Of a DNA stretch of 64,000 bases, positions 10,050 through 64,000 are shown piece by piece. The notes below the pieces were generated by a model. The model was given only the letters and a program-made list of their open reading frames with translations. It searched no databases and was not told where the DNA came from. This DNA is from an uncultured Bacilli bacterium (GTDB lineage: Bacteria > Bacillota_I > Bacilli_A > RF39 > UBA660): the NCBI GenBank assembly GCA_944372545.1, contig CALVZO010000041.1:3325-67324 (forward strand), read 5' to 3'. Both the position numbers and the translations under genes were made by a program. The first letter of the stretch is position 1. Each line of letters opens with the position of its first letter.

Positions 10050-10067
10050 TTTAATCCTCCTCCAATA

Positions 10068-14851: not shown

Positions 14852-14900
14852 CTTTATTTTATTTGCAATAGAGTATTCTTTATGATAACATTTTGTTTAG

Positions 14901-15626
14901 GTGGTAAAATTGGAAAAAAGTAATAAATGGATTTTAATAATTTTAATTATATTAACATGTGTAGTAGTAGGTTTTTGCTTTTATTCTGTTATAAAAAATA
15001 ATGATTTAAAAGATAGTGATGCAAGTAAATTTTATCATGAATATACAGAATATAATGGAAAAATTAATGATAGTAATGGTCTTAGTTATGTTAATGTCAA
15101 TATAAATGATACTAATAATATTAAGTATTTAACAAGTAAAGAAGCAATTGAGTTACTTGAAAGTGGAACGGGAGTTATTTATTTTGGGTTTCCAACTTGT
15201 CCTTGGTGTCGTTCTTTAGTAAGCCCGCTTTTAGAAGTAGCACAAACTAAAAATGAAACAATTTATTATTTAAATATTTTAGATATGCGTTCATCTTTCT
15301 CGTTAAGTGAAGGGAAAATTAGTAAAACTAGTGAAGGCAGTGAAAAATATTATCAAATACTAGAGTTATTAGATGAATATTTAGAAGAATTTGTTTTAGA
15401 AGATGAAGCCGGTAACACTTATGATACAGGTGAAAAAAGATTATACGCCCCATCTTTAGTCGCAGTAAAAGATGGAGAAGTAACTTCTTTTCATGAAGGA
15501 ACTATAGATAGTCAAAATTCTGGTTATGATGAATTAAGTGAAGAAGAGTTAAATGAATTAAAACAAATTATTACCAAACTAATTGATAGTAAGAATACTA
15601 GTGTATGTACTAACGATAAATGTTAG
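14901..15626 (+). CDS. Membrane-anchored thioredoxin-fold protein
   Basis: N-terminal TM helix and CxxC motif FGFPTCPWCRS. The start may be TTG 14910 behind aggtgg. Confidence 0.6.
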   Translation: MVKLEKSNKWILIILIILTCVVVGFCFYSVIKNNDLKDSDASKFYHEYTEYNGKINDSNGLSYVNVNINDTNNIKYLTSKEAIELLESGTGVIYFGFPTCPWCRSLVSPLLEVAQTKNETIYYLNILDMRSSFSLSEGKISKTSEGSEKYYQILELLDEYLEEFVLEDEAGNTYDTGEKRLYAPSLVAVKDGEVTSFHEGTIDSQNSGYDELSEEELNELKQIITKLIDSKNTSVCTNDKC

Positions 15627-15687
15627 TACTTTTTATTTGGCTAATTAAATGTTATAATTGAGATATAGATAATAAGGGTGATTTCAT

Positions 15688-16620
15688 ATGGCCAAAAAAA
15701 ATAAAGAAAGAATAATTTTAGAAGATGTTGAATTAAAGCCGCAAGTTATTGGGTATACATATCAAAAGAAAAGTAATTTAGGAAGAGTTATTTTTATATT
15801 TATTGTCTTTGGACTTGCTATTTTTTTTATAAATGATATAAGTGTATATATTAATAATCTTTTAGGAAAAAATTCAGCCTCAACAATAGTTGATGGTACA
15901 ATACCTAATAAAGATAATAATGAAAATGATAATATTCCTGCTAATGAGGTGGTCTATAATTTATTTTCCAATACACTTACTATAACTGAAGGAAATATTA
16001 TTTTAAATAATTTTAATTTTCTAAATAATACCCTTACTTTTGATGTTAATAATAATACAAACACTAATATAGATTTAAGTAGTAAAAAATATTTTTTAGA
16101 AACTTATACAGAAAATAGAACATTATTAGAAAGACATAAATTAGATATTGGTAGTATTACTTCAAGCGGAAAAATAAGTTATGAATTTGCCTTAAATTAT
16201 AGTTTTTATTATCTAGTTTTAGAAGAAAAAACAATTGATGATTATCCAAATATTACTTTAATTGAAGATGATACAAAAGCAAGTAATCTTACTTGTAAAA
16301 AAGATAATGAAGAAATAGTATATACATTTAGAAGTAGTGAATTATATGAGATAAGACATACAATATCAGAAAATGATCCAACAAAAGAAGGATATTATCT
16401 AAACTATACTACTTATCAAAATAAAGTATCAACATATAATAATATTAATGGGATAACTGCTACATTTAATGGTAACTTAAATGGTTATACTGCAGTATTT
16501 TCCCTTAATTTACAAAACACTGATTTAAGTAATGTTTCAGAAAAATATTATTATGCTTTTAGAGAAGTGCCAAAAGTAGTTAATTTTGAAATGGAAACTT
16601 ATGGTTTTACATGTGAATAA
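15688..16620 (+). CDS. Hypothetical membrane-anchored, Asn-rich extracytoplasmic protein
   Basis: 310-aa ORF with RBS aagggtga and a single N-terminal TM segment. No family recognised. Confidence 0.4.
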   Translation: MAKKNKERIILEDVELKPQVIGYTYQKKSNLGRVIFIFIVFGLAIFFINDISVYINNLLGKNSASTIVDGTIPNKDNNENDNIPANEVVYNLFSNTLTITEGNIILNNFNFLNNTLTFDVNNNTNTNIDLSSKKYFLETYTENRTLLERHKLDIGSITSSGKISYEFALNYSFYYLVLEEKTIDDYPNITLIEDDTKASNLTCKKDNEEIVYTFRSSELYEIRHTISENDPTKEGYYLNYTTYQNKVSTYNNINGITATFNGNLNGYTAVFSLNLQNTDLSNVSEKYYYAFREVPKVVNFEMETYGFTCE

Positions 16621-23249: not shown

Positions 23250-23970
23250 GAACCCCCCCAGTAAAACTTGGGGTTCTAAAGAGCTTTAGCGTTACAAAGA
23301 AAAACCTCCTTTGATAAAATAAGTGCTGTCTATCAAATGCACTAAATAATCAAAGGAGGAGTCCTAAGTGGACGTAAATAGTTTAGCACACACGAAGTGG
23401 AATTGCAAATACCACGTAGTGTTTGCCCCAAAATTCAGAAGAAAAATAATATATCATCAATTAAGGATATAGGAAAAATAATTAGAATGCTATGTGAAAG
23501 AAAAGATATAACAATAATTGAAGCGGAGTTATGTCCAGACCATATACATATGTTAATAAGTATTCCACCAAAAATGAGTGTTGCAGGAGCAATAGGCTAT
23601 ATAAAAGGTAAGAGTACATTGTTGATATTTGATAGGCACGCAGATATGAAATATAAATACGGTCAAAGGCAGTTTTGGTGTAGAGGATATTATGTAGATA
23701 CAGTAGGTAAAAATACAAAAGCAATACAAGAGAGCGCAATATAGCGTTGCCAGTAAGTGACCCTTATAGGGCAAAGTAAAACTACTAGCTAAGCAGGTAG
23801 ATTTTTATTGTATCATTATTGTATCATTTTATGGTTTTTGTATTCTTTTTTTAAAATTAAATAAACTATTAAGTAGTATAAAATATAGTAATATAATATG
23901 TTACTAGTTGGAATCTCAAACAAAAACATCGTTAGTCCCTTGAATCAATTGGGGAAAACGATGTTTTTAT
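23250..23970 (+). mobile_element. Decayed IS200/IS605-family element (approximate ends)
   Basis: Carries the tnpA remnant. Subterminal hairpins lie at about 23255-23276 (cccccagtaaaacttgggg) and about 23921-23968 (aaaaacatcgtt...aacgatgttttt). Overall size is about 0.7 kb. Confidence 0.55.
23368..23778 (+). pseudogene. tnpA: IS200-type Y1 transposase TnpA, frameshifted and internally deleted
   Basis: It opens VDVNSLAHTKWNCKYHVVFAPKFRRKIIY in one frame. It continues DIGKIIRMLCERKDITIIEAELCPDHIHMLISIPPK...FWCRGYYVDTVG in another, with a 1-nt loss near 23461. The C-terminal end DPYRAK* sits in a third frame. Confidence 0.8.
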
Positions 23971-24173: not shown

Positions 24174-24293
24174 CTCACTGAAAATTACTGACAAAAGTGA
24201 CACTAATTTTCAGTGAGAAGTTGTTTTTAACTTAATTTTGTTATATAATTGTACTGAAAATTAGTGGTAAAAGTGACACTGGTTTTCAGTGAG
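24174..24293. repeat. Two copies of a 41-44 bp dyad element bracketing the promoter of the AAA ATPase gene
   Basis: Copy A (24174-24217) is ctcactgaaaatt-actgacaaaagtgacact-aattttcagtgag. Copy B (24253-24293) is actgaaaatt-agtggtaaaagtgacact-ggttttcagtgag. TTGTTT-N17-TATAAT (24221-24249) lies between them. Copy B abuts the RBS gaggag. Confidence 0.6.
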
Positions 24294-24303
24294 GAGAATA
24301 TTT

Positions 24304-25545
24304 ATGCAAGAAATAAGTAGAGAAGAGTATTTAAAAGAACTTATTAGTAGTAAAGGAAATCGTCTTATAAAAGTAATTACAGGTATTAGAAGATGTGGAA
24401 AAAGTTATTTGCTTGATCCTATATTTAAAAATTATTTATTAAATGATGGAGTAAAACAAGATCATATTATTAAATTAGATTTAGATTTAATTGAAAATAA
24501 AAAATATCGAAATCCAATGGAATTATATAATTTTGTTATGGAAAAAATAAAGGATGATGATATTTATTATGTTCTTTTAGATGAAATACAATTAGCAGAA
24601 AATTTTGAAGAAGTACTAAATAGTTTTTTAAAAAAATCTAATTTAGATGTATATGTTACAGGAAGTAATTCTAAATTTTTATCTAGTGATATAATTACTG
24701 AATTTAGAGGGAGAAGTACGGAAATAAAAATATATCCATTGTCGTTTAAAGAATTTGTTGAATTAAAAAAATTATCTTTAGATAAAGCATGGAAAGAGTA
24801 TGTTATGTATGGTGGGCTACCTCCAGTTGTTTTGCAAGAAAATGAAAAACAAAAAAGAGATTATCTATTAAATTTATTTGAAACAACTTATTTAAAAGAT
24901 ATCATTGAAAGAAATGATATTAAAAGAAAAGATGTTTTAGATGCAATTGTAAATATTTTAGCCTCAAGTATTGGTTCCCTTACTAATCCTTCAAATATTT
25001 ATAAAACTTATATTGCAAAAAGTGATAATGATATTTCTATAAATACTGTAAATTTATATATAGAATATTTAGAAAATGCCTTCTTGATTAGTAAAAGTAA
25101 TCGCTATAATGTAAAGGGAAGAAAGTATGTTTCAACGCCATTTAAATATTATTTTACAGATTTAGGATTAAGAAATATGAGATTAAATTTTCGTCAACAA
25201 GAAGAAAATCATATTATGGAAAATATTATTTATAATGAACTTTTAATAAGAGGTTATAATGTTGATGTTGGAGTTGTGGAAGTTAGAAATAAAGAAGGTA
25301 GAGTATATTATGAAGTTGATTTTGTTTGTAATATGGCAAGTAATAGATATTATATACAGTCGGCATTAAATATTGATACTCCTGAAAAAAATAATCAAGA
25401 ATCTCGTTCATTAAATGCAATTGGAGATAATTTTAAAAAAATAATTATTGTAAGAGATGATATAAATTTATGGCATAATGAAGATGGCATTTTAATAATT
25501 GGAATTAAAGAATTTTTATTAAATAAAGATAGTTTAAATTTATAG
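24304..25545 (+). CDS. AAA+ ATPase of the AAA_14/DUF4143 type
   Basis: Walker A GIRRCGKSYLL and Walker B YVLLDEIQ, with a C-terminal DUF4143-like region. Start moved to ATG 24304 behind gaggag. Confidence 0.7.
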   Translation: MQEISREEYLKELISSKGNRLIKVITGIRRCGKSYLLDPIFKNYLLNDGVKQDHIIKLDLDLIENKKYRNPMELYNFVMEKIKDDDIYYVLLDEIQLAENFEEVLNSFLKKSNLDVYVTGSNSKFLSSDIITEFRGRSTEIKIYPLSFKEFVELKKLSLDKAWKEYVMYGGLPPVVLQENEKQKRDYLLNLFETTYLKDIIERNDIKRKDVLDAIVNILASSIGSLTNPSNIYKTYIAKSDNDISINTVNLYIEYLENAFLISKSNRYNVKGRKYVSTPFKYYFTDLGLRNMRLNFRQQEENHIMENIIYNELLIRGYNVDVGVVEVRNKEGRVYYEVDFVCNMASNRYYIQSALNIDTPEKNNQESRSLNAIGDNFKKIIIVRDDINLWHNEDGILIIGIKEFLLNKDSLNL

Positions 25546-28115: not shown

Positions 28116-28616
28116 ATGAAAAAGATTAAAAAAGTTTGGGAAGAAAATAAAGTGCTACTAGTATTAGCAGTTATTTTAATAATTTGTTTAGTAGTAGTAG
28201 CTATTGTGTCACTTACATATTTTTATGGCTCAAGTGATAATGTTTATGGAGATAGACTAAATGAAATAGAGAATACTCCTATTAGTTCTAAGTTACTTAC
28301 TGATATTGAAAGTGAATTAAAAACTAATGAAAGTGTTTTAGAAGTTGAAAGTAATGTTAAAGGAAAAATTGTCTACATTAGTATAAAGTTTGTGGAAGCA
28401 ACTAAAATGGAAGATGCCAAAGTTATTGCAGAAAGTGTCATTGAATTATTTAATGAAGATGAATTATCATTATATGATATTAATTTTACAATTAATTCTT
28501 TATCAACAACTGATTTTGTTGGCTATACTTTAATGGGCTCAAGAAATGCTGCCGGAAATGGTACTATTGTATGGAACAACTATAATATTCAAGAAGATAC
28601 TGAGGAAGAAGATTAA
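28116..28616 (+). CDS. Hypothetical membrane-anchored protein
   Basis: 166-aa ORF with good RBS (agaggtga) and one N-terminal TM helix. Precedes the GGDEF-like gene by 2 nt. Confidence 0.4.
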   Translation: MKKIKKVWEENKVLLVLAVILIICLVVVAIVSLTYFYGSSDNVYGDRLNEIENTPISSKLLTDIESELKTNESVLEVESNVKGKIVYISIKFVEATKMEDAKVIAESVIELFNEDELSLYDINFTINSLSTTDFVGYTLMGSRNAAGNGTIVWNNYNIQEDTEEED

Positions 28617-38609: not shown

Positions 38610-39710
38610 TTAGGTATTTTTTTCATTTAAGAAATTAAGAGATATTGCTAAAAATAAATAATTTATTAAAGTATTAGTACCACCATAAGATAATAAAGGA
38701 AGAGGAATACCCATAATAGGTAATAAACCTATATTCATGAAGATGTTATATATTTGATGGAATATAAATAAAGATAGATAAGAATAGATAAATAATTTAG
38801 AATATTTATTAGATAGTTTATTAGTTTTAATAATTAAATAGATATCAATAGATAAATAACATAAGATTATTAAGATAGCATTAAATATACCAAAGTTACC
38901 AATAGAAAAAGCAAATATAAAATCAGTTGGAGCTTCGGGAATATAAATTAATATTTTATTTAATCCTACGCCAAAAAAAGATGAGGCTCCAATTGATATA
39001 AGGGCATTTTCTAATTGATAACTAGAGCCACTTGCAAAATTAATAATTCTATCCATTCGATAAAATAGGGAAGTACCAATTAATTTAATTAATAAATCTT
39101 GATAATTAAAATACATTATAAAAAAAGATAATATAAATATAAAGAAAATAGTAAAAAAAGTTATATAAAAACATTTATGTAATTTAATAAATAATAAAAA
39201 GATAAATAAAATAATTAAATAATTTATTATAGCCCCAGTATCTGGTTCTAAAAATACTAATATAGAGGGTATAATAGTTAATATAAAATATTTTATAATT
39301 AATTTAAATTCATCTATTAAAGTATTTAATTTAGTATTTTTTAAAATAGAAATAAAATAAATAATTAAAGATAATTTCATAAATTCACTAGGTTGAAAAG
39401 ATAATCCATTGATACTTAACCAACATTTAGCACCATTAATATCACTTCCTATAAATAAAACTAAAATTAATAAAATAAGAGAAAATAAATATAAATATTT
39501 AGATAATTTATATAAGTGATTAGTAATTTTTATTTTTTTAGAAATAAAAATTACTATAGTACCAATTATAATAAAAATAAATTGTTTTAAAAAAGCATGA
39601 TTATAAGAACTACTTATTAATTTAGCATTATACATATTAAAAAGACTTATTATATTTAATATAAGTATGGGTATATATAAAAATAAATAATTAATATATC
39701 TTTTTTTCAT
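38610..39710 (-). CDS. SEDS-family protein (FtsW/RodA/SpoVE)
   Basis: Ten-TM ORF with family blocks SFQPSEFMKL, PDTGAI, PEAPTDFIF and GIPLPLLSYGGT. Confidence 0.8.
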   Translation of the reverse strand: MKKRYINYLFLYIPILILNIISLFNMYNAKLISSSYNHAFLKQFIFIIIGTIVIFISKKIKITNHLYKLSKYLYLFSLILLILVLFIGSDINGAKCWLSINGLSFQPSEFMKLSLIIYFISILKNTKLNTLIDEFKLIIKYFILTIIPSILVFLEPDTGAIINYLIILFIFLLFIKLHKCFYITFFTIFFIFILSFFIMYFNYQDLLIKLIGTSLFYRMDRIINFASGSSYQLENALISIGASSFFGVGLNKILIYIPEAPTDFIFAFSIGNFGIFNAILIILCYLSIDIYLIIKTNKLSNKYSKLFIYSYLSLFIFHQIYNIFMNIGLLPIMGIPLPLLSYGGTNTLINYLFLAISLNFLNEKNT

Positions 39711-41160: not shown

Positions 41161-41622
41161 ATGAATAATAATAATTCTTCAAAAAGTTCTAGGGACTGCA
41201 ATAATAATTGTATTAGTGAAATTCTAAGTATTATTTTAGTTTTACAAGAGAGTGTTTGTCCTGATAATTGCCTAGATACTTGTGATAGACCAATGCTTGG
41301 TGGAGGTAGTAATTGCTTAGTATGTAATACAAGACCAGTAATGCTTTATACATGCTGTGGTAATGGTGTAGCATGGAGTATGCCAATAACTAAAGATGTT
41401 ACTATTAGTTGTAGTGGTGATAGTGGAAGTCAGTCTTGTTCAAATGTTTTTAGAGTTGAAAAGATAGAAGGTTGTTGTGCAACTTTTAGAGTTTTAGCAC
41501 CAAATACTGATACAACCAGTCTATGTCCATATGTTGCTACTAATTCTTATTTTACAATGGATTTAAATTGTGTATGTGCTATTAGATGTTTATCAGATAC
41601 TTATGTAGACTGTGTTTGCTAA
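41161..41622 (+). CDS. Spore coat protein CotY/CotZ family
   Basis: Cys-rich 153-aa protein. Blocks NTRPVMLYT, FRVEKIEGCCATFRVLAP and CVCAIRCLS are colinear with B. subtilis CotY/CotZ. Confidence 0.8.
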   Translation: MNNNNSSKSSRDCNNNCISEILSIILVLQESVCPDNCLDTCDRPMLGGGSNCLVCNTRPVMLYTCCGNGVAWSMPITKDVTISCSGDSGSQSCSNVFRVEKIEGCCATFRVLAPNTDTTSLCPYVATNSYFTMDLNCVCAIRCLSDTYVDCVC

Positions 41623-45514: not shown

Positions 45515-45573
45515 TTAAAATAACTAAATAAATATTATTTTAAAATATGCATACAAATTAAGTAGAGGTGTAT

Positions 45574-46728
45574 ATGAAAAAGTTAATAATATTATTTAGT
45601 TTTTTCTTTTTATTTACAAGTGTTGTTTTAGGAGAAGAAATAACATCTTTTAGTGAAAGTGCCATTTTAGTGGAAACTTCAACAGGAAAAGTAATTTATG
45701 AAAAAGATGCTGATATAAAAAGGGCTCCAGCAAGTATGACAAAAATAATGAGTATGATTTTAATTATGGAAAGTATTAGTAATGGTAATTTGAAATTAGA
45801 TGATAATGTCGTTATAAGTGAAAACGCTGCAAGTATGGGTGGTAGTCAAGTTTATTTAAATACAGGAGAAGTTTATAAAGTTAAAGAGTTAATAAAATCT
45901 ATTGCCATTGCGAGTGCGAATGATGCCGTAGTAGCAATGAGTGAGAAGGTTGCTGGTACAGAAGAAAAATTTGTTTCTTTAATGAATGAAAAATGCGCAA
46001 GTATAGGTTGTACTAATACTAACTTTGTTAATCCGCATGGACTAGATAGTGAAAATCATTATAGTAGTGCTAGAGATATGGCTTTAATGGGAACTTATTT
46101 AGTTAATAATTACCCAGAGATTTTAGAATATACTAGTATTTATGAAGATTATTTAGAGAGACCTGATGGGTCTAATACTTGGTTAGTAAATACAAATAAA
46201 TTGGTTAGATTTTATGAAGATGTTGATGGTTTAAAAACAGGATTTACATCTACGGCAGGCTATTGTTTAACTGCCACTGCTAAGAAAAATAATATGCGTT
46301 TAGTAAGTGTTGTTATGGGAGTAGATTCTCCCGATAATAGAACTAGTGATACAGTCAAGTTATTTAATTATGGTTTTAATTCTTATAAACTATCAGTAAT
46401 TTATGAAAAGAATAAGATAATTGATGAGGTTAGAGTCGAAAAAGGGAAAAAAGAAAGTGTAAAAATTATGCTACTTCAAGATGCAACAGAATTTTTAAAT
46501 ATTAATGATAAAAATAAAACTTATACGATTAATGTATCAATGGGTAAAGTAGTTGCCCCCGTAAAAGTTGGTGATATTGTGGGTGAAGCAGAAATTATTG
46601 ATAATGAAAGTAATATTGTAACAACTGTCCCAATTACTGTTAGTGAAAATGTTTTAAAAGCAAGTTTATGGGATTATTTTAAAAGAAATTTAAATATATC
46701 TTTATCAGGAAAAAATATTATAGTTTGA
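45574..46728 (+). CDS. D-alanyl-D-alanine carboxypeptidase (DacF/DacB-like PBP5 family)
   Basis: Signal peptide, SMTKIM (SxxK), SANDA (SxN) and KTGFT (KTG), plus a C-terminal beta-domain. Lies upstream of spoIIAA, as dacF does in Bacillus. Confidence 0.85.
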   Translation: MKKLIILFSFFFLFTSVVLGEEITSFSESAILVETSTGKVIYEKDADIKRAPASMTKIMSMILIMESISNGNLKLDDNVVISENAASMGGSQVYLNTGEVYKVKELIKSIAIASANDAVVAMSEKVAGTEEKFVSLMNEKCASIGCTNTNFVNPHGLDSENHYSSARDMALMGTYLVNNYPEILEYTSIYEDYLERPDGSNTWLVNTNKLVRFYEDVDGLKTGFTSTAGYCLTATAKKNNMRLVSVVMGVDSPDNRTSDTVKLFNYGFNSYKLSVIYEKNKIIDEVRVEKGKKESVKIMLLQDATEFLNINDKNKTYTINVSMGKVVAPVKVGDIVGEAEIIDNESNIVTTVPITVSENVLKASLWDYFKRNLNISLSGKNIIV

Positions 46729-46829
46729 TAAAATTGATGTTTCGTTTGCAAAAAACTTAAAAATAGAAAGTTTTGCAAATACACTGCAAAACTTTTGAAA
46801 TTGTGATATTATTTTAATGAGTGAAATAT

Positions 46830-47988
46830 ATGATAAAAAGAGATAATTATTTAAATAAAATGATATCACTTAAAGATACAGAATTTATAAAAGTAATAAC
46901 TGGTGTTAGGCGTAGTGGAAAATCAACTTTAATGTTGATGTTTAAAGAATATATACTTAACAATGGCGTTAAAAAAGAAAATGTAATTCATGTTAATTTT
47001 GAATCAGCAATGTATGATGATATAAAAAATTATAAAGATTTATATCTATTTGTTAAAGAAAGAATTAAGAAAGAAAAAGTATATTTACTTTTAGATGAAG
47101 TGCAAAATGTTTTATCTTGGGAAAAAGCAATAAATTCACTTAAAGTTGATTTTGATATAGATATATATATAACTGGTTCAAATGCCTATCTGTTATCTAG
47201 TGAATTATCAACACTATTATCTGGTAGATATATTGAAATAAAAATGTATCCTTTATCTTTTAAAGAATATTTAGTTTTTAATAATTATGATACTAATAAT
47301 ATTGAAGAAAAATTCAATGATTATTTAAAATATGGTGGTTTACCTGCAATAACTTTGATAAAGCATAATGATGATTTAGTTCTTTCTTATTTAAATGATA
47401 TTTATAATAGTATAGTAAAAAAAATATAGTTGATAGAAATAATATTAAAGATACAGCATTATTAGAAAATATAATAAAGTATTTAGCAAGTAATATTGGA
47501 AGTCCTAAGTAGAAAAGTCAAATCATCAAACTATAGATAATTATTTAAATATGTTAGAAAAGTCTTTTATAGTTTATAAAGCAGATAGAACTGATATAAA
47601 AAGCAAATCACTTTTAAAAACATTGGGTAAATATTATATATCTGATTTAGGTTTAAGAAATATAATATTAGGTTTTAGAAATATAGATGAAGGACATTTA
47701 TTGGAAAACATTGTTTATTTAGAACTTTTAAGACGGGATTTTAAAGTTAATATAGGTAAATCTAATGATTATGAAGTTGATTTTGTTGCTGAAAATCCTC
47801 AGGAAGTAAAGTATTATCAAGTTACTAGATCGTTAATTAATGAAGAAGAAAAAGTTCGTGAATTAAGAAGTTTAGAAAATATAGAGGACAATTATGAAAA
47901 AATAATCTTAACGATGGACAAAACAATAAATAATGATATTAATGGTATAAAAATAATCAATATAATAAATTTTTTACTTGAAGAATAA
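46830..47988 (+). pseudogene. Disrupted AAA_14/DUF4143 ATPase paralogue
   Basis: The N-terminal part (GVRRSGKSTL, LLLDEVQ) stops at 47429 in an A-run. A second frame continues to TAG about 47510, then a gap, and the C-terminal part resumes at 47551 (NYLNMLEKSFIVYK...). Colinear with the gene at 24304-25545. Confidence 0.7.
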
Positions 47989-48140
47989 AAATAAAAATAT
48001 AGAAGCCTTAATTAAAACACAAAAATTCATGGGCTTTTTTTGAAGTAAAGTAATTTAATACTGTCAAATAATTGTCTAATTAAGTTTTAAAGCCTATTAT
48101 CTTTTGTTTGTTTGCTATAATAATATTTAAGGAAGTAATT

Positions 48141-49556
48141 ATGAAACAAAAGAAGAAAAGAAAAATAAATATAATTTTTACAATTATTTTGTTAGTAACG
48201 ATACTAATATTTTTTAGTTTATTATTTTATATAAATATAATTCCTATACTTTATACAATTATTGGTTTAATTATAAGTCTAATATTTGCATTTGGCATAA
48301 TTTTATTAAATTTTAGAAGGATTAGAATACTAAGAATTATTGGTTATACATTAAGTACAATAATTACGGGACTTTTAATATTTATTATAGTTTATTTATT
48401 TAATACAATTGGATTTTTATTTAATGTAACTGATGGTGACTATGTTATGCATACTTATAATATATTAGTATTAAAAGATAGTGATTATGAAAAAATAGAT
48501 GATTTAGAAAATTTAGTTATGGGTATTAATGAAACCACTAGTGAAGAAGAACTTAATAAATTAAAGAAAAATATTGAGAAAAAAATAGACACTAGATATA
48601 GTGAATTTGAAGATATAACATCTTTAGTAGATGGTTTAATAAATAGAGATGTTGCAAGTATCGTATTAGAAAATAGTGAACTTGATTTATTAAAAGAAGA
48701 AACTTTAGAAAGTTATAATTTATTAAAAAATATTTATCAAATTGAAATAAAAAATGATATAAGTGATTTAAAAGATATTATTAATATTAATAGTGAGCCA
48801 TTTAATATCTATATTAGTGGTATAGATACATTTGGAAGTGTTAATAGAACAGGCCGAAGTGATGTTAATATGGTTGTAACTATTAATCCCAAGACTGAAA
48901 AAGCCTTTATAACATGGGTACCTAGAGATTATTATGTATTTATAAATAATAGTAGTTATAAAGATAAACTAACTCATGCTGGTATTTATGGAATTGATTC
49001 AAGTATTTATGCAATGGAAAAATTACTAGATGTCAATATAAATTATTATGTTAAAGTTAATTTTACATCTGTTATTGAAGTTGTTGATTTACTTGGAGGA
49101 ATAACTGTTAATAATGAAGAGGCTTTCTACTTCGATGATGGTACATACTTTGCTAAAGGTAATATTAAATTAAATGGAGAAGATGCTCTAAAATTTGTAA
49201 GAGAGAGAAAAAGTTTAAGTGAAGGTGACATAAGTAGAGGTAAAAATCAAATAAAAGTGTTGGAAGCAATAATTAATAAAGCCTTATCACCTAGTATTAT
49301 AAAAAATTATAATAGTTTATTAAAATCATTAGATAATGCTTTTGTAACTAATATGAGTCAAAATACAATGATCGGATTTATAAGAAGAGAGTTAACTAAC
49401 AAGAGAAACTGGCAATTTAGTAGTTATACTTTATCTGGTACTGATAGTAACGAATACACATATTCTTATAAAAATAAATTATTATATGTCATGTTACCTA
49501 ATGAAGAATCAGTAAGTACTGCCAAAAAGAATATTAAAGAAATGATGGAAGGATAA
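48141..49556 (+). CDS. LytR-CpsA-Psr (LCP) family protein
   Basis: N-terminal TM helices, then LCP blocks RSDVNMVVTINP, VPRDYYV and FVRERKSLSEGDISRGKNQ. Confidence 0.8.
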   Translation: MKQKKKRKINIIFTIILLVTILIFFSLLFYINIIPILYTIIGLIISLIFAFGIILLNFRRIRILRIIGYTLSTIITGLLIFIIVYLFNTIGFLFNVTDGDYVMHTYNILVLKDSDYEKIDDLENLVMGINETTSEEELNKLKKNIEKKIDTRYSEFEDITSLVDGLINRDVASIVLENSELDLLKEETLESYNLLKNIYQIEIKNDISDLKDIININSEPFNIYISGIDTFGSVNRTGRSDVNMVVTINPKTEKAFITWVPRDYYVFINNSSYKDKLTHAGIYGIDSSIYAMEKLLDVNINYYVKVNFTSVIEVVDLLGGITVNNEEAFYFDDGTYFAKGNIKLNGEDALKFVRERKSLSEGDISRGKNQIKVLEAIINKALSPSIIKNYNSLLKSLDNAFVTNMSQNTMIGFIRRELTNKRNWQFSSYTLSGTDSNEYTYSYKNKLLYVMLPNEESVSTAKKNIKEMMEG

Positions 49557-49583
49557 ATTATTCTTCCTTTTTTATTTGGCGGT

Positions 49584-49605
49584 TTATGATAACATTTGTC
49601 GAAGT
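49584..49605 (+). promoter_or_regulatory. Spo0A box upstream of spoIIAA (TTATGATAACATTTGTCGAAGT)
   Basis: TGTCGAA at 49597-49603, about 50 nt upstream of the spoIIAA start. The spoIIA operon is Spo0A-activated in Bacillus. Confidence 0.55.
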
Positions 49606-49654
49606 TGTTTAAAAGAAAATAAATTTGTACTATATTAAAATAGTAGGTGATGGA

Positions 49655-49987
49655 ATGTTAAAAATGGATTTAGAATATAAGACATCAATACTTTTTATAA
49701 GATTATTTGGTTCATTAGAAAGAAAGACAACATACAAAATTAATAATTATATAGTACCGGCATTAGTAAAGCATAAAATAAAAAATATAATTTATAATTT
49801 AGAGAATTTAAAAAATATTGATGAAGCCGGAGTAGATGCAATTCTAAATACAAAATGCATTATGAGAAAGAATAAAGGAAACATCATTTTATGTGGAGTA
49901 AGTGATTTTATAGGAAGGAAGGTAAAACGTTTAAAATTAAAAACAACAAAAACAGAAAAAACGGCCTTAAAAATAATTGAGGTGTAA
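49655..49987 (+). CDS. spoIIAA: Anti-sigma-F antagonist SpoIIAA-like STAS protein (phospho-Ser replaced by Glu)
   Basis: Aligns without gaps to B. subtilis SpoIIAA over about 70 residues (LFIRLFGSL..NLENLKNIDEAGVDAIL vs LCIRLTGEL..NLEDLSFMDSSGLGVIL). Start ATG 49655 behind taggtga. Confidence 0.7.
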   Translation: MLKMDLEYKTSILFIRLFGSLERKTTYKINNYIVPALVKHKIKNIIYNLENLKNIDEAGVDAILNTKCIMRKNKGNIILCGVSDFIGRKVKRLKLKTTKTEKTALKIIEV

Positions 49988-49990
49988 AGG

Positions 49991-50632
49991 GTGAACTATG
50001 AGAAAATAATAAAAGATAATGAAAAAATGATTTGGAAAATTACAAATTATTTTTATGGTGTAGACAAATATGATTTATTTCAAGCAGGAGTAGTTGGTTT
50101 ATTAAAAGCATTAAAAAAATATAAAAGTAATGGTTTAACTAAATTTTCAACTTATGCTCACGATTACATATTTGGAGAAATGTATCTTCTAGCAAGTAAT
50201 AAAAGTATTAAAATAAGTAAAGATATTTTAAAATTATCTAAAAAATTAGAACAGACTCGTTATCTTCTTGCCCAAAAATTAGAAAGAATTCCGAGTAATT
50301 TGGAATTAGCAAAATTTTTAGGGTTAAAACTAGAAGAAGTTGAATTAGCATTAAGTAGTGCTAGTTGCATCTTATCACTAGATGAAAAGGTAGATGATGA
50401 GCGTAGTCCTTATGAATTAATTAGTGCTAAAGAAGAAGATTTAGATACCAAAATTTTACTAAATGATAGTATGGCCGTTTTAAATGAAGATGAAAAAAAT
50501 ATTATAAAATCACGATATTATGAAGATTTAACTCAACAAGAAGTAGCAAGAAAACTTAATATGACTCAAGTAATGGTTTCTAGGTATGAGAAGAAAAGTA
50601 TTAATAAAATGAGAGAGTATTTAACTATGTAA
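49991..50632 (+). CDS. sigF: Sporulation sigma factor, SigF-like
   Basis: Sigma-70 regions 2-4 (FSTYAHDYIFGE; RYYEDLTQQEVARKLNMTQVMVSRYEKK). Position between spoIIAA and spoVA matches Bacillus synteny. GTG start lies 3 nt after the spoIIAA stop. Confidence 0.75.
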   Translation: MNYEKIIKDNEKMIWKITNYFYGVDKYDLFQAGVVGLLKALKKYKSNGLTKFSTYAHDYIFGEMYLLASNKSIKISKDILKLSKKLEQTRYLLAQKLERIPSNLELAKFLGLKLEEVELALSSASCILSLDEKVDDERSPYELISAKEEDLDTKILLNDSMAVLNEDEKNIIKSRYYEDLTQQEVARKLNMTQVMVSRYEKKSINKMREYLTM

Positions 50633-50662
50633 GTATAAAATAGAAATTTTTTATTCATAATA
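50633..50662 (+). promoter_or_regulatory. Candidate sigma-G type promoter of the spoVA genes
   Basis: GTATA-N18-CATAATA matches GHATR-N17/18-CATXHTA, 15 nt upstream of the spoVAC start. Confidence 0.55.
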
Positions 50663-50676
50663 AAAGTGGTGATATT

Positions 50677-51114
50677 ATGAATAAAGAGGAGTATAGCAAG
50701 TTAGTTAAAAAATACTCACCCAAAGAGCCAAAGTTAAGAAATGCCATCATTGCTTTTTTAGCAGGTGGTACGGTTGGTTTAATTGGTGAAGTTATAGTTA
50801 ATATTTTAATGAAATCATTTGGATTAGCAAGAGTTGACTCTTATGCTTGGCTAGCATTTATTTTAATTCTATTTGCAACGTTCATGACCGCAATTGGTAA
50901 ATTTGATAACTTAGTAGTGAAATTAAAATGTGGCTTAATAATTCCAACAACGGGATTTGCCCATAGTGTTCAAAGTGCTGCTTTGGACTATAAAAAAGAT
51001 GGTTTAATTAATGGTATTGGGGCTAATATTTTCAAACTTGCGGGCTCAGTTATTTTATACGGTATAGTAAGCGCTTTCTTCTTAGTATTAATAAAGGTGA
51101 TTATCTATGGCTAG
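50677..51114 (+). CDS. spoVAC: Stage V sporulation protein AC
   Basis: 145-aa 4-TM protein with an N-terminal YSKLVKKYSPKEP block. Followed by spoVAD and spoVAE. Confidence 0.85.
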   Translation: MNKEEYSKLVKKYSPKEPKLRNAIIAFLAGGTVGLIGEVIVNILMKSFGLARVDSYAWLAFILILFATFMTAIGKFDNLVVKLKCGLIIPTTGFAHSVQSAALDYKKDGLINGIGANIFKLAGSVILYGIVSAFFLVLIKVIIYG

Positions 51115-52084
51115 TATGAAATTTAATAATGTATACATAAATGATTATGTAACAATTATGGGACCATTAGAACAAGATAGTAAATTAAAGAAAGTTGATT
51201 TAAAAATTGATGATTACTATTTTGGGGAAAAAACTTTTGAACAAACCGAAGCAAAAATGCAAAAAGTTGTTTTAAATAGTCTAATTGAGAAAAATGGTTT
51301 AAATTATCAAGATATTAATTTATTAATTGGTGGCGATTTACTTGATCAAATATCTGCGACTAGTTATGCTTGTGTTGATATTCCAATTTCTTTATTAGGT
51401 ATTTATAGTGCTTGTGCAACTTTTCCCGAAAGTTTAATTATTGGTAGCATGTTTTTACAAGATAAAGGTTTTAAAAAAGTAATAGGACTTACTAGTTCCC
51501 ATAATTTATCTGCAGAAAGACAATTTCGTTATCCAATTGAATATGGGGCATTAAAACCACATACTTCAACATTTACTACAACGGCCGGTATTAGCACACT
51601 TTTATCTAAAGAAAAAGGAAAAATAAAAGTTGAATCTGCAACAATTGGAGAAGTAGTGGAAATGGGAATAAAAGATGCCAATAATATGGGAGCAGTTATG
51701 GCTCCGGCGACTGCGAAAACTCTCTATAATCATTTACAAGATTTAAAAAGAAGTATCGATTATTATGACTTAATTTTAACTGGTGATTTAGGTTGTATTG
51801 GTGGCAAAATTTTTAAAGAATTTTGTGAAGTTAATTATAAATTAAAGGTTAAAAAACATTTAGATGCTGGGTGTGAGTTATATTTAAAAAGTCAAGAAAC
51901 TTATGCAGGAGGAAGTGGTCCTGCTTGTCTTCCTTTAGTTTTATATAACAAAATACTCCAAAGTTCTAAATACAAAAAAATCTTAATAATTGGTACAGGA
52001 GCCCTATTTAATAAAACTTTTGTTAATCAAAAATGTGTTATACCATCTATTGCCCATGCTGTTAGTTTGGAGGTTACTCAATAA
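51107..52084 (+). CDS. spoVAD: Stage V sporulation protein AD
   Basis: Thiolase-fold 325-aa protein (GGDLLDQ, YSACAT, GTGALF). 8-nt overlap with spoVAC. Confidence 0.85.
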   Translation: MASMKFNNVYINDYVTIMGPLEQDSKLKKVDLKIDDYYFGEKTFEQTEAKMQKVVLNSLIEKNGLNYQDINLLIGGDLLDQISATSYACVDIPISLLGIYSACATFPESLIIGSMFLQDKGFKKVIGLTSSHNLSAERQFRYPIEYGALKPHTSTFTTTAGISTLLSKEKGKIKVESATIGEVVEMGIKDANNMGAVMAPATAKTLYNHLQDLKRSIDYYDLILTGDLGCIGGKIFKEFCEVNYKLKVKKHLDAGCELYLKSQETYAGGSGPACLPLVLYNKILQSSKYKKILIIGTGALFNKTFVNQKCVIPSIAHAVSLEVTQ

Positions 52085-52431
52085 TGTATATAAGTGCATT
52101 TTTATTCGCTGGCTTTGTTTGTCTTATTTGCCAAATAGTTTTTGATAATAGCAAATTAACCCCAGGACATATTACTAGTAGTGTCACAGTAATCGGAGCA
52201 ATACTCTCTTTTCTAGGAATTTATGATGATATTGTTTCTAAATGTGGAGCAGGAGCAACTGTTTTAATTGCTAACTTTGGTCATATGTTATATTCTGCCG
52301 GTATAAAAGGCTATGAAGAAGCAGGATTCTTAGGAATATTCTCCGAATTATTATGTTCCTCTGGAATTGCTATTGTCAGTGTTATAGTTCTATCTTTTGT
52401 CTTTACTCTCATATTTAAAGCAAGAGATTAA
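52084..52431 (+). CDS. spoVAEB: Stage V sporulation protein AE (AEB-type)
   Basis: 115-aa membrane protein. ATG overlaps the spoVAD stop. Confidence 0.8.
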   Translation: MYISAFLFAGFVCLICQIVFDNSKLTPGHITSSVTVIGAILSFLGIYDDIVSKCGAGATVLIANFGHMLYSAGIKGYEEAGFLGIFSELLCSSGIAIVSVIVLSFVFTLIFKARD

Positions 52432-52468
52432 TAAAAAAATTGTAAACAATTAATTTTGCTTACAATTT

Positions 52469-52681
52469 TTATTTTTTTATAATTTTAATTTCAAACCCAT
52501 GTGTATTAGCAATTTTTATTAAATCTTTAAAGTAATAGTTAGTAATGCCGTATTCATTTTTTCTAACCCAGTCTTTTGATTTACCAACGCTTTCAGCAAA
52601 TTCTTTTTGCGATAAATTTGTGGCTTCTCTCATAAACCTTAATATTTCGTTTGGCTTATACTTATCAGTGTTTAAAATCAT
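52469..52681 (-). CDS. Small HTH DNA-binding protein
   Basis: HTH pattern LRFMREATNLSQKEFAESVGKSKDWVRKNE. Start set at ATG 52681 behind aggaga; the ORF-track extension lacks an RBS. Confidence 0.6.
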   Translation of the reverse strand: MILNTDKYKPNEILRFMREATNLSQKEFAESVGKSKDWVRKNEYGITNYYFKDLIKIANTHGFEIKIIKK

Positions 52682-52830
52682 ATTATTTCTCCTAATAAAA
52701 ATTATAAGATAACAACCCAAATATCTTTTAAAAATGCCATTGGCAGTCACACATCATTTTGCTATACTTTACTTAAAGTATGATTAATAGTCACATATGT
52801 TGGCTTACACATACAAAATGAGGTGTGACA

Positions 52831-54012
52831 ATGAAGATACAAATAAAATCTTTATTAATATTATGTCTATGTTTAATAGAAGTATGTAGTATTTTTTTAA
52901 TGTGGAAGAGTTTATCGGGAAGAGAAACATATTTAGATAATGTAAATTTAAAAGATATAAAAAATAATAGTATGCTTGCTATAATGTTAGAACAAAGTGA
53001 TGGCTCTTATATAGAATCAGATAGTAATACATGGCCAACAGATATGAAATATAATGAAACATTATCTGATTGTATAGATGCATTAGGTAATAAAATAAAT
53101 GGTGCCTTAACATATGATAGTAGTACAAATATAGCAACAGTAGAATCAGGTGTAACTAGTTATTGTTATTTGTATTTTGATATGATAAAAAATGTATCAA
53201 CATTATGTACATCAGGAGATAATTTAGGAAATTGTTTGCTTACAAATAATGCATCACTAGATAGTCTTAATGATGCAGAAAAAGGTGGATTATATAGATA
53301 TCAAGGAACAAATGATTTAGTAAATGATAACTATATATGTTTTGGGACAAATGATAAGAGTGAGTGTACAAGTAATACCGATGCATATATGTATAGAATA
53401 ATGGGAGTTAATTCAAATGGACAATTAAAATTAATTAAGAAAGAAGCACTAAATAGTACAATGCAATGGTATAGCAATTATAATGCAGATATAACATGGC
53501 CAAATTCAACAATATATAAGGAATTAAATGGAAGTAGTTTCCTAAGTAACACAACATACGTACCAAGCGGTTGAAGTAGTAAAATAGCAGACTTTTCTTG
53601 GAAATACGGAGATAATACAACATCAAACACAACCGCAGAAAATCTATACTCAATAGAAAACGCATGGACAAGTACCGTATAAGCAAAAATAGGATTAATG
53701 TACATGCATGATTATTACTACGGAATGAGTGGAGGAAACAATTGTTCAAGTTCAGGAGCATACACAACATGTAAAACAAGTTGGATACACTTATCAAACA
53801 GCGATAGTGGAGCACCAGCAACATATGAGTGGACCATGTCGCGTTGCGGTGGAAGCGGCATTTATAGTGTGTAGTTTGTGAATTCGACCGGCTATGTTAA
53901 CAGTTATACTCTGGTTTACTCGCATTCGGTTCGCCCAGTCTTCTATCTAACAGAAGAAGAACAATATATAAGTGGAAGTGGAACAATAGAAGACCCACTT
54001 ATTATAAATTAA
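52831..54012 (+). pseudogene. Membrane-anchored surface protein gene interrupted by three in-frame stops (TGA, TAA, TAG)
   Basis: One reading frame runs from ATG 52831 to TAA 54010-54012, with internal stops at 53572-53574, 53680-53682 and 53872-53874. Coding-like sequence continues through all of them (..AKIGLMYMHDYYYG.., ..SVRPVFYLTEEE..). Confidence 0.7.
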
Positions 54013-54179
54013 CAGACTATAAGTGAAATAAAATCGTCAACGAAGATGTTAAAATAGGTGGAAGTGTGGCTTCATACATACTTCCTCTTCCAAAAAATAT
54101 TGATATTCTTAGGGAATATCTTTTTTCATATTTCTTAAATAAAAATAATTTGTTATAATGAAGGGGTAGTGGTGATATA

Positions 54180-61369: not shown

Positions 61370-61446
61370 GGGCGATTAGCTCAGTTGGTTAGAGCATCTG
61401 CCTTACAAGCAGAGGGTCATAGGTTCGAGTCCTATATCGCCCACCA
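61370..61446 (+). tRNA. tRNA-Val (TAC)
   Basis: Acceptor gggcgat/atcgccc, anticodon loop ctTACaa, T loop ttcgagt, CCA. Confidence 0.9.
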
Positions 61447-61453
61447 TTATGAT

Positions 61454-61529
61454 GCCGACATAGCGTAATTGGTAGCGCACCTGACTTGTAATCAGAAGGT
61501 TGGGGGTTCGATTCCCTCTGTCGGCACCA
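61454..61529 (+). tRNA. tRNA-Thr (TGT)
   Basis: Acceptor gccgaca/tgtcggc, anticodon loop ctTGTaa, T loop ttcgatt, CCA. Confidence 0.9.
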
Positions 61530-61538
61530 TCTTTTTAT

Positions 61539-61622
61539 GGAGGGATAGCGAAGTGGTCAAACGCGGCAGACTGTAAATCTGTTCCTTCGGGTTCCATGGT
61601 TCAAATCCATGTCCCTCCACCA
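61539..61622 (+). tRNA. tRNA-Tyr (GTA)
   Basis: Acceptor ggaggga/tccctcc, anticodon loop ctGTAaa, long variable arm, T loop ttcaaat, CCA. Confidence 0.9.
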
Positions 61623-61636
61623 TTTTTATATAATTT

Positions 61637-61712
61637 TGCCCCGTAGCCAAGTGGTAAGGCATCAGACTTTGACTCTGACATTCCGTTGGTTCGAACCCAG
61701 CCGGGGCAGCCA
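61637..61712 (+). tRNA. tRNA-Gln (TTG)
   Basis: Acceptor tgccccg/cggggca (U1-A72, typical of bacterial tRNA-Gln), anticodon loop ctTTGac, T loop ttcgaac, CCA. Confidence 0.88.
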
Positions 61713-61722
61713 TCTTTATTGT

Positions 61723-61798
61723 GTCTCGTTAGCTCAGTAGGTAGAGCATTTGACTTTTAATCAAAGGGTCTGGAGTTCGAATCTCCAACGAGACACCA
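61723..61798 (+). tRNA. tRNA-Lys (TTT)
   Basis: Acceptor gtctcgt/acgagac, anticodon loop ctTTTaa, T loop ttcgaat, CCA. Confidence 0.9.
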
Positions 61799-61812
61799 TT
61801 GGAAATATAAGG

Positions 61813-61840
61813 GTTTGCAAGCGATTTGCAAACTTTTCTT
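61813..61840 (+). terminator. Terminator of the five-tRNA operon
   Basis: Hairpin gtttgcaa/ttgcaaac followed by ttttctt. Confidence 0.75.
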
Positions 61841-62162
61841 ATATATAAATTTATTAAAAAGTGGCACAAAAAGTGGCATAGGCAGGGGCAAAAAGGATTT
61901 ATATTATATAAATTAAAAAAAGTCAAAACTGACTTTTAAATTTTAATATAAAAGAGCTATTTGTGTATATTAACCTTTTATTCTTTATTTTTTGTGATAT
62001 ACAATATTAGGCTCCCCAGTTTATAGCCCTTCTATTATAATTATATGATTTATTACTGGAGTTAAAAGTACTAAAAATATAAATTTACATTTTTTGACAT
62101 AAATATTAAATAATAAATTCTATTAATCTTCATAAAATTGTTTTATAGAGGATAATTTGTTA

Positions 62163-62191
62163 TTGCATTTTTTCTAACCCTGTAATATAAT
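62163..62191 (+). promoter_or_regulatory. Sigma-A promoter of the Arg-Pro tRNA pair
   Basis: TTGCAT-N17-TATAAT, about 20 nt upstream of tRNA-Arg. It has the same -35/-10 hexamers as the promoter at 61299. Confidence 0.65.
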
Positions 62192-62212
62192 GGGATTACT
62201 TGGGGATTATAC

Positions 62213-62289
62213 GCACCCATAGCTCAACTGGATAGAGCGTTAGACTACGGATCTAAAGGCTGGGGGTTCGAATCCCTTTGGGTGTACCA
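62213..62289 (+). tRNA. tRNA-Arg (ACG)
   Basis: Acceptor gcaccca/tgggtgt, anticodon loop ctACGga, T loop ttcgaat, CCA. Confidence 0.88.
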
Positions 62290-62296
62290 TATATTT

Positions 62297-62373
62297 CGAG
62301 AAGTAGCACAGCTTGGTAGTGCGCGTGGTTTGGGACCATGAGGTCGCAGGTTCGAATCCTGTCTTCTCGACCA
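62297..62373 (+). tRNA. tRNA-Pro (TGG)
   Basis: Acceptor cgagaag/cttctcg, anticodon loop ttTGGga, T loop ttcgaat, CCA. Confidence 0.9.
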
Positions 62374-62448: not shown

Positions 62449-63183
62449 TTAATATTTATATTTATAAAATAATTTTTCTAAAGCATCATATTCAATTCTA
62501 AAAGAAAAACCATGATTGTCAATTGGTACATCTATGCTATCTTTATTCCTTTTTAAATAAATTGATATAGAAATTTTCCCACTTTTTATTAATTGCAAAA
62601 ATTCAAAAAATCCTTTTAATTTATAAAAATTTATTTTTACATATTTATAATAAATTTCTCCTTTAATTTTATATGGATATAGTTGTATAATTGCTAAATA
62701 AGTTAATTTTGTTTTCAATTTCCTTTCTAAAGTTTTAAAATCCCAATAGCATACGTCTTCTACAAAATTTCCTTCATAATACGATTTCATGATTATTAAT
62801 TGATGCAGAAAATCAACATCTAATTTAAACTCATAATGACATCGCTTTTTAGCCTTATTAGCAAATAACTCTCTATCAAAAACCAACAAATTCTTATCTT
62901 TATATTTAGGGTAGCAATAAGTATCAAATATGTATTTAATTGCGGGTGATTTTTTTCTTTTCGGCTCACAATGAAACAACTTAAGTGGGTATTTAGAATA
63001 AGTCATTCGTGTTTTAATTTCAACGCAACCAAAATCCGGCTTACAAAGTTGATCTTCAGATTTTCCAAGAAGTGTTTCAAACGTGTAACCTGCTCCTGAA
63101 TTGCCTTTCCTTAAACTTTTTATTAATCCTTTTCTTCTAATATCTTGAAATTTTTCTTTTAATATAACAAAATCTTTTTGCAT
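62449..63183 (-). CDS. MvaI/BcnI-like PD-(D/E)XK restriction endonuclease homologue
   Basis: Colinear with my recollection of BcnI: KGL..R....G.G.TFE.LLG, catalytic-type PDFGCVEIK, LKLFH..P and C-terminal HGFSFRI....LEKLF. 244 aa. Confidence 0.55.
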   Translation of the reverse strand: MQKDFVILKEKFQDIRRKGLIKSLRKGNSGAGYTFETLLGKSEDQLCKPDFGCVEIKTRMTYSKYPLKLFHCEPKRKKSPAIKYIFDTYCYPKYKDKNLLVFDRELFANKAKKRCHYEFKLDVDFLHQLIIMKSYYEGNFVEDVCYWDFKTLERKLKTKLTYLAIIQLYPYKIKGEIYYKYVKINFYKLKGFFEFLQLIKSGKISISIYLKRNKDSIDVPIDNHGFSFRIEYDALEKLFYKYKY

Positions 63184-63413: not shown

Positions 63414-63435
63414 TTTATTGTTAGAAGGTGTTGCA

Positions 63436-63768
63436 ATGTATACTGATCGAATTTATTTGACAGTTCAAGATATTCTTGATAAAGAATTTAAAATTGATGC
63501 AAGGGGTTTCCGGCCTCAAGAGGTTGATAAATTTCTTGATATGGTTATTCGTGATTATACAGAGTACAATTCTATTATAAAAAAATTAGAAAAAGACATC
63601 AAAGATTTGACTGAAGACAACAGCAAATTGAAGCAAGAAATTAGGTATTTAAAAGAGCAATTAGAATTACAAAGTGCAACAGATAATACACCACGAACAG
63701 TAACAAACGTCGATTTGTTAAAAAGAATAAGTCAGCTAGAAAAAGTTGTATTTGGTAAAGGAGAATAA
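63436..63768 (+). CDS. gpsB: Cell-cycle protein GpsB (DivIVA-domain)
   Basis: LTVQDILDKEFKIDARGFRPQEVDKFLDMVIRDY DivIVA N-domain, followed by a coiled coil and then rnpB, as in Bacillus. Start ATG 63436 behind gaaggtg. Confidence 0.85.
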   Translation: MYTDRIYLTVQDILDKEFKIDARGFRPQEVDKFLDMVIRDYTEYNSIIKKLEKDIKDLTEDNSKLKQEIRYLKEQLELQSATDNTPRTVTNVDLLKRISQLEKVVFGKGE

Positions 63769-64000
63769 TATTTAGGCAAATGCTGCATAAAAATTTTATG
63801 TAGAGGAAAGTCCATGCTCGCACAACCTGTGATGGTTGTAGTGTTCGTGCTTAAGGAAGAAATAACTTAAGGTAGCCTAGTGCTAACAGCGTTGAAAACA
63901 TCTTTAGAAGATGCCAGTAAACATAAAGTGCCACAGAAACGAGTTGTTTAGTAATAAACAAATGAAACGCGGTAAACCTCACGAGCGAGAAACCCAAATT
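63769..64000 (+). ncRNA. rnpB: RNase P RNA (type B), 5' portion; continues beyond the window
   Basis: Conserved blocks GAGGAAAGTCCATGCTCGCAC (from 63803), GTAGTGTTCGTGC, AAAGTGCCACAG and AACGCGGTAAACC..CGAGCGAGAAACCCAAATT match B. subtilis rnpB. The 5' end is approximate. Confidence 0.88.

Follow-up and report, generated by a model that had tools for sequence, protein, structure and literature searches.

A 64,000-nucleotide (nt) stretch of DNA from an uncultured Bacilli bacterium, called the window throughout, carries a spoIIA-type locus in which the gene for a SpoIIAA-like STAS-domain protein is followed immediately by the gene for the sporulation sigma factor sigma-F, with no spoIIAB gene between the two. 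The partner switch operated by SpoIIAB and SpoIIE is the textbook mechanism that restricts sigma-F activity to the forespore. We conclude that spoIIAB was probably lost from the operon in an ancestor of this lineage, that the partner switch disappeared with it, and that the retained STAS protein presumably still regulates sigma-F, without a kinase. All coordinates are those of the window, which is very AT-rich (25.6% GC), and the core of the locus is as follows.

49655..49987, + strand: predicted SpoIIAA orthologue, a 110-amino-acid (aa) STAS-domain protein without the phospho-acceptor Ser; ATG at 49655, TAA at 49985-49987
49823..49825, + strand: GAA codon for Glu57, placed at the phospho-Ser58 position of SpoIIAA by alignments; first residue of helix alpha2 in the predicted fold
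49991..50632, + strand: predicted sigma-F orthologue, 213 aa; GTG start at 49991; best match TIGR02885

The original prediction, made from the letters of the window, was of a spoIIAA-sigF pair that lacks spoIIAB, and direct re-reading of the sequence agrees with its open reading frames (ORFs), their coordinates, the 3-nt gap and the Glu57 and Ala58 codons: AGG separates the STAS stop codon from the sigma GTG, and the codon after Glu57 is GCC. The arrangement extends far beyond this genome. When one genome per species was scanned, 95 loci came up, and 80 of these were fetched (counts of 81 are these 80 plus the window); all are from uncultured gut metagenome-assembled genomes (MAGs) labelled Bacilli bacterium, Mycoplasma sp. 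CAG:472, Tenericutes, Ca. Onthocola and similar. The sigma gene lies directly after the STAS gene in 80 of the 80 species loci, with gaps of -11 to +22 nt and sigma proteins of 211-221 aa, and the block of STAS, sigma and spoVAC/AD/AEb genes is kept in 61 of the 80. An exhaustive search with a STAS profile returned 697 representative clusters at 50% identity. Five distant representatives (63-102 bits), whose loci have 23-30% GC, all show the STAS gene, a sigma gene of 210-217 aa and spoVA genes, and in all five the kinase gene is absent. The predicted lack of a kinase gene in the operon was thus borne out in the window, in the 80 species loci and in the five distant representatives. An assembly or annotation artefact is ruled out by the identical order in four independent assemblies, namely the NCBI MAG GCA_947854765.1 and three independent Logan assemblies of the same organism, and in all relatives.

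In the window the STAS and sigma ORFs share a reading frame, with TAA AGG between them (49985-49993). Read-through of the stop codon to give a STAS-sigma fusion was considered and is ruled out by the range of gaps across relatives, and programmed read-through is unlikely because the frame relation is not kept among them.

The kinase was searched for with phmmer at maximum sensitivity, using B. subtilis SpoIIAB and RsbW sequences as queries and, as targets, all stop-to-stop ORFs of 50 aa or more, taken from the window together with the 80 loci (1.16 Mb) and from 11 later loci (0.1 Mb). No SpoIIAB- or RsbW-like gene was found at better than E = 0.6 in the 64-kb window or in the ~10-kb flanks of ~90 loci. 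By the same procedure the B. subtilis SpoIIAA query recovers the STAS genes at ~1e-10, so the blank SpoIIAB search is not due to divergence alone. Pfam scans of ~50 window ORFs detected neither a HATPase_c_2 nor a PP2C/SpoIIE domain, the sole GHKL domain among them being that of MutL, and the precomputed Pfam labels of genes around the five distant representatives include no such kinase or phosphatase domain either. The window and its relatives probably belong to the GTDB order RF39. For this order a 2024 gene survey reports that spoIIAB and spoIIE are absent or rare/reduced, that the genomes are small and have lost several core sporulation genes, and that sporulation is predicted 'with a markedly different ... 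regulation' (PMC10868615).

The STAS protein, judged by sequence profiles and its predicted fold, is a divergent SpoIIAA orthologue. It matches the Pfam STAS family at 41.5 bits, and its top NCBIfam model is TIGR02886 (spoIIAA) at 45.6 bits, under the equivalog cut-off of 114.75. When a profile built from 24 members of the family was searched against all solved structures, the homologues ranked first were SpoIIAA (1TH8_B, 1TID_B and 1AUZ; E 3e-14 to 7e-13). The AlphaFold2 model (predicted local distance difference test score, pLDDT, 94.1; predicted template modelling score, pTM, 0.84) has as its top Foldseek match Geobacillus stearothermophilus SpoIIAA from SpoIIAB complexes (1THN_B, 1TH8_B), with a template modelling (TM) score of 0.92 and a root-mean-square deviation of 1.7 Å, and RsbV, RsbS and other STAS proteins rank below SpoIIAA. 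Residues invariant in the 81 genomes (R16, G19, K39, N48, G75, C80 and E101) correspond to R17, G20, K40, N49, G76, C81 and E106 of B. subtilis SpoIIAA; beside the invariant Cys80, Cys68 is frequent. The gene sits in the sigF operon, and spoIIAB, which would be expected downstream of a spoIIAA gene, is absent there. Public annotation calls the two proteins only 'STAS domain-containing protein' and 'sigma-70 family' because both fall under the curated equivalog cut-offs.

At the former phosphorylation site, the profile hidden Markov model alignment to 1TH8_B, 1TID_B and 1AUZ is gapless through the motif ('sidesGidail' against 'FMDSSGLGVIL') and places Glu on the phospho-Ser. Glu falls in the same column when MAFFT is used to align the protein with SpoIIAA and RsbV of B. 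subtilis, and in the AlphaFold2 model residue 57 is the first of helix alpha2. The window protein therefore has Glu rather than Ser or Thr at this site, as the original prediction had it. That prediction went further and described the Glu as a fixed, phosphomimetic-like acidic residue. While Glu is indeed the majority state, occurring in 57 of the 81 genomes, eight other residues occupy the column (D7, N6, S6 and one each of T, A, G, Q and P), and the residue is not fixed. Among the close relatives within one subclade the orthologue alignment already contains Ser (L053), Asn (L042) and Pro (L044). The next column is likewise mixed (S37, A13, D7, T6, C4 and others), the flanking Asp and the flanking Gly are each kept in 80 of the 81, and those members in which D-S-S-G is intact likewise have no kinase gene. 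Across the wider family, sampled by its 150 best representatives, the column can hold I, L, M, V, Y, F, K, R, E, D, N, S or T, and I-D-x-x-G-I stays. The variability in the 81 genomes and in the wider family rules out Glu57 as a selected phosphomimic. On these alignments the phospho-acceptor position is a site freed from its former constraint, and Glu57 is a tolerated helix-start residue and its commonest occupant. This drift is a separate, evolutionary line of evidence against the action of any SpoIIAB-type Ser kinase on the STAS protein anywhere in the clade.

The retained features of the STAS protein could also be read differently. An anti-sigma-F may be encoded elsewhere in the genome, either as a relocated, very divergent or kinase-dead SpoIIAB or as a non-homologous protein, with the STAS protein as its antagonist under redox, ligand or proteolysis control, much like RsfA with UsfX in M. 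tuberculosis. The SpoIIAA fold and many SpoIIAA-invariant residues are retained, among them the I-D-x-x-G loop, which is turned toward SpoIIAB in the solved complexes. The invariant Cys80 and frequent Cys68 also count in its favor, although this invariant Cys is no new feature because B. subtilis SpoIIAA has Cys81. A conserved interface of the SpoIIAB type is made less likely by the bulky hydrophobic or basic residues at the position that docks onto the ATP pocket of SpoIIAB. Our own absence test was local, and the thresholds behind the orthologue-based absence given in PMC10868615 are strict; nevertheless, no candidate appeared in the 64-kb window or the ~90 loci, and the linkage of spoIIAA, spoIIAB and sigF is otherwise highly conserved among spore formers (10.1101/2022.02.25.481979). 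We regard a relocated or replaced anti-sigma-F as unlikely, while still giving it some weight, and favor the loss of the kinase with retention of a kinase-free STAS regulator.

The sigma factor is, on profile evidence, a divergent sigma-F orthologue. Its top NCBIfam model is TIGR02885 (SigF) at 144.5 bits, with SigG at 107.8, SigB at 83 and the SigB/F/G subfamily at 138.6; the SigF score is under the equivalog cut-off of 321.45. Against solved structures, the sigma profile matches G. stearothermophilus sigma-F (1L0O_C) at 161.5 bits, and the next structure reaches 107 bits. The alignment to 1L0O_C starts only at its residue 31, and the protein thus lacks ~30 of the N-terminal residues present in Bacillus sigma-F. 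In a profile search for homologues of the sigma factor, the matches listed were all clade members. The surroundings of the pair hold the following control elements and genes.

45568..46728, + strand: gene for a DacF-like S11 D-Ala-D-Ala carboxypeptidase, 3 kb upstream of the STAS gene
48108-49556: gene for an LCP-family transferase (Pfam/NCBIfam), upstream of the STAS-sigF unit
49547..49577, + strand: terminator-like hairpin plus T-run (intrinsic type); stem at 49547-49567 with 9 pairs, then TTTTTTATTT
49595..49603, + strand: putative Spo0A box, TTTGTCGAA, 52 nt 5' of the STAS start codon; its core TGTCGAA begins at -58
49608..49636, + strand: predicted sigma-A-type promoter, TTTAAA-17-TATATT, 9/12 matches, directly 3' of the 0A box
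50633..50662, + strand: predicted forespore-type (sigma-G/sigma-F class) promoter, GTATA-N18-CATAATA, between sigF and spoVAC
50677..51114, + strand: spoVAC (TIGR02838, 135 bits)
51107..52084, + strand: spoVAD (PF07451, 341 bits)
52084..52431, + strand: spoVAEb (TIGR02839, 99 bits)

The site at 49595..49603 matches the consensus of Spo0A boxes. Its exact TGTCGAA core is present at -58 to -74 from the STAS start in 78 of 81 loci, and the other 3 carry TGTCGAT, against a chance background of 0.022 cores per 160 nt. GTTTAAA and CTATATT elements recur 3' of the 0A box in most related loci and resemble a sigma-A promoter; a search by eye upstream of the STAS gene saw no sigma-H-type promoter, the site there being sigma-A-like. 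The GTATA-N18-CATAATA element presumably serves as a forespore promoter, in line with the sigma-G/F consensus, and a strict version of the pattern precedes spoVAC in 40 of 80 loci (background 0.007 per 125 nt). At the other end of the unit, the terminator-like hairpin at 49547..49577 would close the LCP gene and set it apart from the STAS-sigF unit. Upstream, 39 of the 80 loci have an LCP gene and 32 have a DacF-like homologue, the latter on the same strand. The Bacillus-like order that had been proposed for the locus, with a DacF-like gene upstream and spoVAC, spoVAD and spoVAEb downstream, was recovered with Pfam and NCBIfam models, and the DacF-like gene is a remnant of the Bacillus dacF-spoIIA synteny.

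Two features associated with sigma-F were thus found at the locus, a Spo0A box upstream (seen in the sequence only) and spoVA genes alongside, and the proposed SigF identity held: SigF is the best NCBIfam model, sigma-F is the best solved homologue, and the control region upstream is of Spo0A type. Could the protein belong to another class, resembling sigma-G or sigma-B rather than the early forespore sigma-F, with an RsbV-like STAS partner in some other circuit? Its 144.5 bits stand against a SigF cut-off of 321, and the SigB/F/G subfamily is also matched at 138.6 bits. The SigF model nevertheless scores 37 bits above SigG and the sigma-F structure 54 bits above the next, a Spo0A box is what would be expected upstream of an early sporulation operon, the gene is positioned between a dacF-like gene and spoVA, and the STAS protein resembles SpoIIAA more than RsbV. 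We consider such a reassignment extremely improbable and retain the assignment to sigma-F.

Both genes are, to judge from their substitution patterns, under purifying selection, the median pairwise ratio of nonsynonymous to synonymous substitution rates (dN/dS) being 0.156 over 216 pairs of STAS genes and 0.164 over 101 pairs of sigma genes. Both ORFs are undisrupted and keep a constant length in all 81 genomes and also in distant relatives. A few kb upstream in the window lie further sporulation-type neighbors, both intact: an FtsW/RodA/SpoVE-family gene (38610-39710, minus strand) and a CotZ-like spore-coat gene (41161-41622). These data bear on whether sporulation is decaying in a host-adapted lineage, in which case the STAS and sigma genes would be relics without working sigma-F regulation. 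Small genomes and the loss of several core sporulation genes, as given in PMC10868615, would fit decay, as would the lack of a cultured representative or observed spores and scores far under the NCBIfam equivalog cut-offs for both proteins. Against it stand the intact, constant ORFs with a dN/dS of ~0.16, the conserved Spo0A box and forespore promoter, and the intact spoVA, CotZ-like and SpoVE-like genes in the window, and we judge decay to be very unlikely. Taken together, selection, the Spo0A box and the forespore-type promoter argue for a living, Spo0A-triggered forespore program.

We propose that the anti-sigma-F kinase gene spoIIAB was dropped from the spoIIA operon in the ancestor of the whole genome-reduced gut Bacilli lineage. 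Phosphorylated Spo0A (Spo0A~P) would still turn the operon on, and the STAS protein would keep a function tied to sigma-F but independent of kinase and phosphatase. Most likely it would do so through direct, stoichiometric binding to sigma-F or its holoenzyme. Forespore-specific release would then come from something other than SpoIIE-driven dephosphorylation. The adjacency of the two genes without a kinase, combined with the drifted phospho-site, suggests that SpoIIAB/SpoIIE partner switching of sigma-F no longer operates, and the missing SpoIIAB together with the unconserved phospho-site suggests that the first cell-fate switch of spore formation is controlled differently in this lineage. 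Our leading guess at the mechanism is that the three-protein partner switch collapsed to two, with the STAS protein itself acting as a stoichiometric, kinase-independent regulator bound to sigma-F or its holoenzyme. Direct binding would explain why the STAS gene is kept and is always immediately upstream of sigF.

Several points weigh against this proposal. The two-protein contact is a conjecture, much more doubtful than the loss of the kinase itself, and we know of no precedent for a SpoIIAA-type protein that binds a sigma factor directly. No observation of sporulation is known to us from this uncultured lineage. Our kinase search covered the window and ~10-kb flanks, and the absence published in PMC10868615 depends on KEGG-orthologue (KO) thresholds that could miss a very divergent protein. 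The probable assignment to RF39 comes from NCBI labels and from agreement with PMC10868615, not from phylogeny.

Other features were noted around the locus. Between the DacF-like and LCP genes, an AAA_14/DUF4143 ATPase gene is split into two ORFs (46821-47429 and 47551-47988); it is probably a pseudogene, the split being identical in independent assemblies, and an intact 418-aa paralogue lies at 24289-25545. In the distant relative L087, sigF and spoVAC are separated by an unannotated 194-aa gene (2977-3561), which may be lineage-specific cargo or may encode a regulator. Downstream, the spacer between spoVAEb and a GH3 gene (52432-54179) is 1749 nt long in the window and ~660 nt, with no called gene, in GCA_947854765.1 (L081). 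In the window it holds a helix-turn-helix gene (52469-52750, minus strand) and a 249-aa ORF (52825-53574) that has a hydrophobic segment at its N-terminus and matches no Pfam family; since the spacer is shorter and gene-free in the MAG, its content is an insertion that varies between strains. The 249-aa ORF has homologues in 9 other species, located there upstream of the STAS gene.

Elsewhere in the window, the region 6080-12730 has tandem genes for the anaerobic ribonucleotide reductase NrdD, one canonical (7671-10049; 632 bits, with a C-terminal glutaredoxin domain) and one divergent (10754-12730; 98 bits), with radical-SAM activase-like genes nearby at 6080-6769 and 10068-10757. An IS200-like (Y1 transposase) gene was found at 23397-23744. 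ORFs of 153-310 aa without a Pfam match occur at 14390-16620 and 28116-28616; three are upstream of scpA/scpB, and one is directly upstream of a gene for a 667-aa GGDEF protein whose N-terminal 520 residues match no family. Toward the end of the window are a cluster of seven tRNA genes and a gene for an MvaI/BcnI-family restriction endonuclease (minus strand), in 61370-62370 and 62449-63183, with no methylase noticed beside the endonuclease, followed by a DivIVA-like gene (63418-63768) and the 5' part of a class B RNase P RNA (63768-64000), which is cut by the window end.

The combination of kept and lost parts makes this lineage a natural experiment, in which SpoIIAA and sigma-F were kept, the kinase was dropped and the phospho-site was left to drift, as if the switch were dispensable or replaceable. 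The group that departs from the textbook in this way is a very large gut lineage, comprising at least 95 species genomes and the 697 representative STAS clusters. If the two-protein reading is true, no earlier case would exist of an endospore lineage in which sigma-F compartmentalization is established without SpoIIAB and SpoIIE. This bears on how minimal a sporulation program can be and on what other roles a SpoIIAA-type STAS domain can take, and two small proteins expressible in B. subtilis offer a concrete, testable entry point. There is also a practical consequence where gene inventories are used to predict how gut bacteria that are abundant but uncultured sporulate and are transmitted, as marker-based predictors would score such genomes as defective.

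Part of this picture is already published. That RF39 lacks spoIIAB and spoIIE appears in PMC10868615 as one line of an inventory; that work is a KO presence/absence survey and does not describe the retained SpoIIAA, the degenerate phospho-site, the STAS-sigF adjacency or the Spo0A box. As far as we could find, SpoIIAA kept under selection, strict STAS-sigF adjacency, a conserved Spo0A box and a hypervariable former phospho-site over hundreds of clusters are undescribed. SpoIIAA, SpoIIAB and SpoIIE have been treated as a universal core of endospore formation (10.1101/2022.02.25.481979), and Turicibacter carries the canonical trio (PMC13492147).

Compared with the spoIIA operon of Bacillus and Clostridium, the window locus has orthologous first and last genes, a Spo0A box and a dacF-like gene upstream and spoVA downstream, and its STAS fold superimposes on SpoIIAA from SpoIIAB complexes at a TM score of 0.92. 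It differs in that SpoIIE is reported absent from the probable lineage (PMC10868615). The middle gene, encoding SpoIIAB as both anti-sigma factor and Ser kinase, is missing, and Ser58 is unconserved. The window sigma-F is ~30 N-terminal residues shorter, and the promoter looks to be of sigma-A type, not sigma-H type. Another parallel, for one aspect of the system, is found in Mycobacterium tuberculosis, where RsfA (Rv1365c) is an anti-anti-sigma STAS protein whose regulation is not by phosphorylation. The anti-sigma factor UsfX is retained in that system, whereas none was found here, and identity in the fold match is 9%. The RsfA/UsfX/SigF system nonetheless resembles the window locus in having a STAS protein without phospho-control, and the UsfX-RsfB complex (8IH8) is among the fold matches of the window STAS protein.

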